Of a stretch of 22,730 bases of DNA, positions 19,232 through 19,831 are shown piece by piece. A program made the translations under genes and the position numbers. The notes under the pieces are model-generated. The model saw nothing but the letters and a program-made list of their open reading frames with translations, did not search any database and was not told where the DNA came from. Positions within the stretch are counted from its first letter, which is position 1. Each line of letters begins with the position of its first letter. The stretch comes from a virus (taxonomy: Duplodnaviria > Heunggongvirae > Uroviricota > Caudoviricetes), in IMG/VR virus record IMGVR_UViG_2675903433_000018, positions 1 through 22,730 of that record. One strand, given 5' to 3'.

Positions 19232-19270
19232 AAGATGCCCGGCGATAGACCGGGCAAAAGGGCGGAAAGT

Positions 19271-19519
19271 TTAATCTGCATTCAGGAGCAATGCGTTATC
19301 TATGATGATCTGCTCCCATTCTTCGAATGCCCGATCGCGGACCCCCTGGGGAACACTGTTTGTTTTGAAATCAACGACTGTCCGCCATTTCCCGTCCGGA
19401 CGGTACATGCGCAGAGCTTTACTGCCCCCTTCCCTTCGCACCTCAACGTTATGCTTGTCAGCAAACTCTTGTAATGCTCGTAGCGTCCCATGCTTTACTG
19501 TGTAGTATCGCTTTTTCAA
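19271..19519 (-). CDS. Small 82-aa basic protein of unknown function on the opposite strand (start TTG)
   Basis: Minus-strand ORF MKKRYYTVKHGTLRALQEFADKHNVEVRREGG…, GGAGAG RBS; lies in the short interval between the mat-like and portal-like genes. Confidence 0.4.
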   Translation of the reverse strand: MKKRYYTVKHGTLRALQEFADKHNVEVRREGGSKALRMYRPDGKWRTVVDFKTNSVPQGVRDRAFEEWEQIIIDNALLLNAD

Positions 19520-19764
19520 GTTTTCTCTCCAGCCTGTGCCAAGGCTTTGACGTCGAAATTATGTCCTATTCGGTTTTATTGTATCAGATAGTGTGGACAT
19601 ATTATTTCACGTCCGGCGTAGTCGGTCATAGCTTTTGCCTTCCACCTTTTCCACGCCGTATCTAATCGGCGCCCGATGAAATGTTATTGCACTAATATAT
19701 TTCAATATTTCGCTGACACTTGAACAGCGAAACACCCCCATAGATAGCTTGTTCATTGGTAATC

Positions 19765-19790
19765 CTTAACAAGTGACTAGTGTTAAATTC
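19765..19790 (+). promoter_or_regulatory. Putative Lpa-dependent late promoter element upstream of the portal-like gene
   Basis: AACAAGTGACTAGTGTTAAAT, same AAGTGACT core as at 18443, followed by a TAAAT -10-like element. Confidence 0.35.
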
Positions 19791-19831
19791 CGTTCAAACA
19801 CGATGCGAATTATTCTAATTAAGGTGCAATC

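Follow-up and report, generated by a model that had tools for sequence, protein, structure and literature searches.

In the P1 reference genome (NC_005856), mat ends at position 3468 and prt starts at 17312, and the 13,843 bp between the two genes hold res, mod (which an IS5 interrupts in this reference), lxc, ulx and darB. The slot between mat and lxc is occupied by type III res/mod genes in P1 and P7 and is empty in Escherichia phage RCS47 (NC_042128), in which mat directly adjoins lxc and intact ulx (441 nt) and darB (6,768 nt) genes lie between lxc and the portal gene. P1-like phage-plasmids have eight highly variable regions, of which the res-mod segment is one (PMC9603915). DarB inhibits EcoK and EcoB (PMC9024508; PMC12810830), and Ulx, DarB and DdrB have all been tied to protection against EcoB and EcoK (PMC12810830); Ulx is listed as aiding the localisation of DarB in the capsid, and DdrB as aiding its addition to the capsid (PMC9024508).

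We analyzed a stretch of 22,730 nt (hereafter, the window) from an element that belongs to the P1-like phage-plasmids (Punavirus), with loxP/cre, c1, pacAB, ref, mat and prt/pro following one another in the P1 order. The window contains an exact loxP site at 15346, cre (16202-17233), c8 (17284-17595), ref (17841-18401; Pfam RecA_dep_nuc, E = 3.1e-51, with Ref identical to that of P1 at 180 of 186 residues) and, on the minus strand, c1 (13794-14645), an ORF that aligns with the gene annotated by PGAP as the C1 repressor in the MBT-5 plasmid described below. An Rfam scan located the C4 antisense RNA in the window and no RNA family within the interval between mat and prt. The maturation control gene mat (18590..19231, plus strand) encodes a 213-aa protein identical to Mat of P1 at 202 and to that of RCS47 at 210 of 213 positions. 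The portal gene prt (19832..21541, plus strand, TTG start) encodes a 569-aa protein sharing 564 residues with P1 Prt and matching the portal family phrog_1497 (E = 5.8e-261); its match to Pfam Portal_T4 is weak (E = 0.005) and below the curated cut-off. As in P1, the late promoter LPpro precedes prt, and pro (21534-22553; 336/339 residues identical to P1 Pro) follows and overlaps its 3' end.

With the mat stop at 19231 and the prt start at 19832, the interval between them spans 600 bp (19232-19831). Megablast against phage records returned P1, P7, RCS47, SJ46 and their relatives at 94-99% identity, each record matching in two separate places, one covering mat and lxc and the other covering the darB 5' end and prt. 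At a finer scale, window positions 17201-19547 correspond to RCS47 1435-3783 (97.4% identity), positions 19560-19618 to the ulx 5' end and its upstream region, and the sequence from 19613 onward to the darB 5' end through prt (98-99%). Chance resemblance can be set aside, given flanks that share 95-99% identity with P1-family DNA. The order and orientation of cre, c8, ref, mat, lxc, prt and pro are those of P1, whereas the window lacks the EcoP1I res/mod genes with IS5, 356 bp of ulx and 6,645 bp of darB. The accounting against P1 is exact: 6,242 + 356 + 6,645 = 13,243 bp, the difference between 13,843 and 600. Much of what the initial annotation proposed holds at this scale. Its positional assignment of mat and prt is correct, the 569-aa protein is the portal by homology, the two genes are indeed some 600 bp apart, its statement that P1 carries many kb of res, mod, lxc, ulx and darB here agrees with NC_005856, and the first of its two alternatives, that a defence/anti-defence island is missing, describes the locus: the res/mod cassette and the ulx and darB genes have been lost. 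It had, in addition, reduced the interval to one ORF and a promoter; there is one sizeable ORF, of 82 aa, but remnants of ulx, of the darB-ulx spacer and of darB were overlooked.

The compact junction is absent from P1, P7, RCS47, SJ46 and all 20 matching phage records. The possibility raised earlier that P1-like references share it is borne out by three complete E. coli plasmids, and for the lxc-to-prt part by 26 genomes, and not by the reference phages. The compaction is, on these alignments, real relative to the reference phages, yet not unique. We consider it very probable that the 600 bp are what remains of the mat-prt accessory region after gene loss in a P1-like phage-plasmid, and no observation speaks against this structure.

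The ulx and darB scars and the probable order of deletion

Reading from the prt side, the divergent control region between darB and prt (19757-19831) is intact. LPpro (19771..19789, plus strand), which had been noticed as a late-promoter-like motif, is identical to the annotated P1 promoter at 19 of 19 positions, and PdarB (19812..19842, minus strand), a sigma-70 promoter that is only predicted in the P1 record, at 31 of 31; our promoter scan recovered it at 19838..19809 on the minus strand. Next to this region lie 144 nt of the darB 5' end (19613-19756). They belong to a 49-codon minus-strand ORF (19607..19756) in which DarB codons 1-48, about 2% of the full 2,255 aa, are followed by a single new codon and a stop. 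Codons 1-48 are identical to P1 at 45 of 48 positions and match profile positions 1-48 of phrog_1685; tblastn with DarB aligned residues 1-51 only, at 90% identity, and no ORF approaching the full protein of about 2,255 aa, with its methyltransferase and helicase domains, is present. In related records, PGAP annotates the identical darB stretch as an incomplete N-6 DNA methylase pseudogene. The N-terminal 30 residues of DarB were reported to suffice for targeting to the capsid (PMC9024508), and codons 1-48 of the remnant include this packaging signal.

Inside the darB remnant lies a candidate C1 operator, ATTGCACTAATATATTT (19686..19702, plus strand), with two mismatches to ATTGCTCTAATAAATTT, which we take to be the C1-operator consensus. 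With this consensus, the window has 9 operator-like sites versus 0.06 expected by chance. The position of the site corresponds to the 'hypothetical operator Op(pro)' of the P7 annotation; every relative checked has the site, which is one mismatch nearer the consensus here than in P1. Separately, the minus-strand RNA over 19490-19810 has a modest folding z-score of -3.1, the dominant hairpin being native to the darB 5' coding region.

The darB deletion removed 6,645 bp (P1 10454-17098). At its junction, the blastn alignments of the ulx-upstream side and of the darB 5' side overlap by 6 bp, CCGGCG (19613..19618). The comparison shows that darB was lost by one microhomology-mediated deletion between short CCGGCG direct repeats, because P1 carries CCCGGCG at both deletion ends. 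All six related loci in the alignment have exactly this junction, from which we conclude that the deletion was probably a single ancestral event.

Beyond a 12-bp remnant of the darB-ulx spacer (19601-19612), ulx is represented by both of its ends. The 5' remnant (19559..19600, minus strand) is a 13-codon mini-ORF, MSTLSDTIKPNRT, followed by a stop codon that spans the deletion junction; the 3' remnant of about 44 nt (19516..19558, minus strand) ends at this junction (19559/19560) and holds the lxc ribosome-binding site GGAGAG. Relative to the intact ulx of plasmid pOkiPb01707_2 (NZ_AP042646.1, locus L005), the deletion measures 356 bp, which is not a multiple of three, and it spans about P1 10039-10393. 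Accordingly small is the protein match: tblastn with Ulx aligned residues 1-13 only, and there is no intact 146-aa ORF. Two ORFs on the plus strand were rejected as spurious: one at 19235-19474, antisense to lxc, and one at 19474-19665, running from the lxc 5' end through the ulx remnant into the darB remnant, neither with a PHROG match.

Two relatives place the deletions in sequence. pOkiPb01707_2 shares with the window the darB junction and the 144-nt remnant; its ulx, of 441 nt, is intact, and a SIR2 gene lies between its mat and lxc. The other, pE2865-1 (NZ_AP018809.1) shares the junction, the 144-nt remnant and the ulx scar, and differs in carrying SIR2 and type III res/mod genes between mat and lxc. 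Because pOkiPb01707_2 combines the identical darB junction with an intact ulx, loss of darB before ulx is the most economical reading of these alignments, although recombination by which pOkiPb01707_2 regained ulx could imitate this order. The order makes biological sense because Ulx aids the localisation of DarB (PMC9024508). In the gene-loss history that we favor, the mat-lxc slot is empty as in RCS47, darB was removed by the 6.6-kb deletion at the CCGGCG repeats, leaving codons 1-48, and ulx was cut to 13 codons by the 356-bp deletion, probably the second of the two; lxc is intact and the prt-pro control region (LPpro, PdarB and the operator-like site) untouched.

Distribution of the scar and alternative readings of the interval

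A 201-bp probe across the ulx and darB scars was searched in 702 complete E. coli genomes with P1-like sequence and was found in one piece in 26 (~3.7%), leaving about 96% without the scar. The scar-bearing E. coli are mostly derived from cattle or humans, and many are Shiga toxin-producing E. coli (STEC), such as O111. The same lxc-to-prt structure, with different mat-lxc cassettes, occurs in plasmids of wild-bird E. albertii and in an E. fergusonii plasmid. Three complete plasmids, those of MBT-5 (NZ_CP058684.1), AUSMDU00014361 (NZ_CP045829.1) and NJS001 (NZ_CP114131.1), are 99.9-100% identical to the window over positions 19100-19950 and, like it, combine the empty slot with both the ulx and the darB scar; outside these positions, the window forms a mosaic in comparison with the three. 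The MBT-5 plasmid, for instance, is 95.6-99.2% identical in blocks and is without a 418-bp insert between cra and cre. The window as a whole is not contained in any complete E. coli genome of the collection.

This distribution bears on whether the two nested deletions were selected rather than being neutral decay, either because DarB loss was advantageous or because placing lxc under PdarB and the operator gave a useful feedback. A host defence that senses DarB, or the cost of 6.6 kb to a mostly vertically inherited plasmid, would be examples of such an advantage. The wide spread of the lineage, which is found in STEC O111, in further E. coli from cattle and humans and in E. albertii from birds, and the variety of cassettes beside the scar are in line with selection, as are the intact state of lxc despite the loss of all three of its annotated promoters and the operator-like site, kept in every relative checked and closer to the consensus by one mismatch than in P1. 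We nevertheless regard selection as unlikely: no more than about 3.7% of the P1-like E. coli genomes belong to the lineage, a single ancestral event with hitch-hiking explains its distribution equally well, and ddrB has not decayed, which points to a recent loss, or to another role of ddrB, rather than to coordinated adaptive remodelling.

Still less probable is that the compact arrangement is ancestral and that ulx and darB were inserted later in P1-type phages, with no loss here. The mat-lxc slot, which has no res/mod remnant, could on its own be an ancestral empty site, but the interval holds DarB codons 1-48 in register, Ulx codons 1-13 and the ulx 3' end, the junction coincides with a 6-bp microhomology present at both ends in P1, and about 96% of the P1-like E. 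coli genomes are without the scar; these remnants mark a deletion, not an unoccupied insertion site, and the proposal is effectively refuted for ulx and darB. An assembly collapse or mis-join dropping about 13 kb, for which nothing specific speaks beyond the length of darB and flanks common to co-resident P1-like elements, is excluded because 26 complete E. coli genomes, each assembled independently, have exactly this junction, as do plasmids of E. albertii and E. fergusonii, and laboratories, hosts and countries of origin differ among them. In addition, the sequence divergence around the junction fits a real evolving lineage, and the PGAP annotation of these records includes the darB pseudogene.

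The locus is, in sum, a known kind of thing, an ordinary gene-loss variant of P1 with an interval composed entirely of known P1 genes and pieces of them: the mat-lxc half matches RCS47, and the ulx and darB scars match a minority lineage of plasmids that public databases already contain. Our literature searches found no paper on this darB-deleted lineage.

The mat-lxc slot and the lxc gene

Neither Mat nor the product of the 82-aa ORF matched a Pfam or NCBIfam model, and their full-length PHROG matches (phrog_1837 for Mat; phrog_2160, positions 1-82 of 82, E = 7.8e-57, for the ORF) are to families labeled 'unknown function.' Because family searches were uninformative, both identities were settled by direct comparison with the annotated genomes of P1, P7 and RCS47. 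For mat, this comparison also revised the start: the 222-aa GTG-initiated protein of the initial annotation is probably 9 codons too long, the ATG at 18590 being used in the RCS47 annotation and by PGAP on near-identical plasmids.

Between mat and lxc there remains a 39-bp spacer (19232..19270) with convergent genes on either side, which we describe as an empty cassette slot. It contains a GC-rich hairpin, GCCCGG-CGATAGA-CCGGGC, which lacks a T-run and was not flagged by the intrinsic terminator scan. The spacer region aligns without a break to RCS47 3336-3566 (97.8% identity). Homology to P1 ends at window position 19186 (P1 3423) and restarts at 19264 (P1 9743), so that the 6,319-bp res-mod(IS5) block of P1 corresponds to 77 bp here, a net difference of -6,242 bp. 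The slot thus holds no EcoP1I-like type III res/mod cassette, as the initial annotation had stated when it found res/mod and darB missing, and tblastn with P1 Res, P7 Mod and the SIR2 protein of a relative gave no match anywhere in the 22.7-kb window. An empty mat-lxc junction was found in 35 of 589 matching E. coli genomes, and relatives carry SIR2, res/mod or both. We conclude that the slot is an independently exchanging cassette site, because its contents vary beside an identical darB junction in the six aligned loci; this fits the published variability of the res-mod region (PMC9603915).

The 82-aa ORF (19271..19519, minus strand, TTG start) is lxc, formerly bof, the gene for the C1 repressor modulator or co-repressor. 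Its product is identical to P1 Lxc at all 82 positions, the start codon and the ribosome-binding site GGAGAG are those of P1, and the gene lies on the minus strand, just downstream of the ulx remnant and convergent with mat, as in RCS47, P1 and P7. According to a note in the P1 record (NC_005856), Lxc strengthens the binding of C1 to its operators, a role that we assign to the present protein by homology. The tentative naming of this ORF as bof/lxc was therefore right, whereas the accompanying suggestion of a remnant is ruled out by the full-length identity, and the proposed search for toxin-antitoxin families produced no Pfam match. That the ORF instead belongs to a toxin-antitoxin system, encodes a novel small regulator or is a remnant without coding function, as the lack of a matching Pfam or NCBIfam model and its omission from the PGAP record of the MBT-5 plasmid might suggest, is vanishingly improbable in view of the P1 identity, the shared TTG start and ribosome-binding site, the phrog_2160 match, the lxc/modulator annotation in RCS47, SJ46, P1 and P7, and substitutions across relatives that are almost purely synonymous (4-14 synonymous versus 0-1 non-synonymous codon differences). 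The gene is intact in every scar-bearing locus examined.

Transcription of lxc and consequences of DarB loss

The P1 record places three sigma-70 promoters of lxc inside ulx (P1lxc, P2lxc and P3lxc; 10043-10071, 10221-10249 and 10366-10392), all of which fall within the 356-bp deletion, leaving lxc without a promoter of its own among those annotated. Judged by these annotations, transcription of lxc must differ from that in P1. The darB deletion puts PdarB about 290 bp from lxc and destroys the hairpin that follows darB in P1, and in the terminator scan the minus strand from PdarB to lxc was free of terminator-like sites. Since the native promoters are deleted, lxc is intact, PdarB is near and no terminator-like site intervenes, we infer that lxc is most likely transcribed by read-through from PdarB across the darB and ulx remnants, in a transcript that would cross the C1-operator-like site at 19686-19702. 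Weak promoter-like sequences spanning the junctions are a minor alternative: the minus-strand matches at 19629..19601 and 19587..19558 agree with the promoter model at only 9 of 12 positions each, and the -10-like hexamer of the second, CATAAT (19563-19558), which spans the ulx junction, reads CATAAC in two relatives, losing its final T, and is not conserved. The intactness of lxc could also reflect a recent deletion, or import of the allele by recombination, rather than continued expression.

A more far-reaching version of PdarB read-through is that the joining of the darB leader, with PdarB and the operator-like site, to lxc constitutes a functional rewiring that makes the C1 co-repressor itself C1-controlled, and that the 49-aa DarB leader peptide might still be made and packaged. 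We think this improbable; were it true, lysogeny would be held with altered tightness in this plasmid-prophage lineage.

The interval has no restriction-modification cassette and no functional DarB or Ulx, from which it would follow that the element has no plasmid-borne restriction system at the mat-lxc slot. Classical darB mutants are sensitive to EcoK/EcoB-type type I restriction and otherwise viable. By analogy, virions of this element would lack DarB protection and would be sensitive to restriction of this type, while being otherwise viable. The darA operon of the element lies outside the window, and retention of the other Dar genes is known from the MBT-5 relative alone. Its plasmid, 100% identical to the window over the junction, encodes Hdf, DarA, DdrA and DdrB in full length, with 95-98.6% identity to P1; for the wider set of LydA, LydB, Hdf, DarA, DdrA, DdrB and Hxr, again full-length, the range is 95-100%. 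The order Hdf, DarA, DdrA, DdrB, Hxr is unchanged apart from a TnpB gene of the IS200/605 type inserted between ddrA and ddrB. Of the Dar system, that relative has thus lost the DarB branch alone.

The importance of these observations lies mainly in correct annotation, and the expression of lxc without its mapped promoters poses a small regulatory question. For P1-like phage-plasmids more broadly, the locus would exemplify stepwise loss in a multi-protein anti-restriction system, in which the effector gene darB went first and the helper gene ulx second, with ddrB and the DarA arm intact in the relative. The CCGGCG junction may serve as a marker of a P1-like plasmid sub-lineage in STEC, E. albertii and E. 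fergusonii, which, if particles still form, is predicted to be restricted by EcoK/EcoB-type systems.

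The mat reading frame

Mat is annotated as 250 aa in P1, whereas it comprises 213 aa in the window. A frame difference near 18580 (region about 18444-18620), probably a 1-nucleotide length change in a G-run, cuts off 37 upstream codons of mat, and the start of the protein is therefore placed at the ATG at 18590. The same start is used in the annotation of the P1-like phage-plasmid RCS47 and by PGAP on the relatives; the 222-aa Mat with a GTG start proposed in the initial annotation is probably too long.

Immunity-like genes and an insertion relative to P1

An immI-like module occupies positions 12181-13761 of the window, flanked by pacB (10602-12086) and the minus-strand c1 gene (13794-14645). 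It consists of two RNAs, an isrK-like sRNA (12181-12258) and a C4 antisense RNA (12283-12370), together with an icd-like ORF and the gene for a KilAC antirepressor (12643-13761). P1 has a single immI region, sited elsewhere on its genome. The MBT-5 plasmid, a relative from Escherichia coli, carries 3 icd-ant pairs. The 3′ end of a further KilAC antirepressor gene lies at 22639-22730, directly 3′ of pro, where P1 has lydE and lydD; in the MBT-5 plasmid, an icd-ant pair is placed between lydD and pro.

Between cra and cre, an insertion of 418 bp (15781-16198) stands in place of P1 positions 419-432 and is found in 32 of the 695 P1-like E. coli genomes. It carries a plus-strand ORF of 131 aa (15810-16205), which overlaps the cre start codon and matches phrog_20152 (unknown function), with no significant match in Pfam.

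The surroundings of the darB and ulx deletions

In relatives with the darB scar, a 6,645-bp deletion leaving codons 1-48, IS200/605-type TnpB/InsQ genes are inserted at differing sites: between ddrA and ddrB in the MBT-5 plasmid (L012, NZ_CP058684.1, 11867-13075), just downstream of pro in pE2865-1 (L004, 12330-13538), and between prt and pro in Escherichia albertii pEA32_2 (L007, 8323-9453). On either side of the ulx deletion junction, substitutions are clustered within window positions 19540-19566 in comparison with P1 and pOkiPb01707_2, a relative with intact ulx (GGCTTTGACGTCGAAAT versus GGCTTCAACTTCCAAAT and TATGTCC versus TATGTTT). One possibility is that the deletion occurred in an allele of ulx that had diverged; another is that the cluster reflects error-prone repair.

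The role listed for DdrB is aiding DarB addition to the capsid (PMC9024508). The MBT-5 plasmid has lost darB and ulx but kept ddrB, which is full-length (13175-16162; 995 aa, 98.6% identical to P1), and pE2865-1 also has a gene of ddrB length. Retention of ddrB despite the loss of darB indicates either that the loss is recent or that DdrB serves some function that does not depend on DarB.
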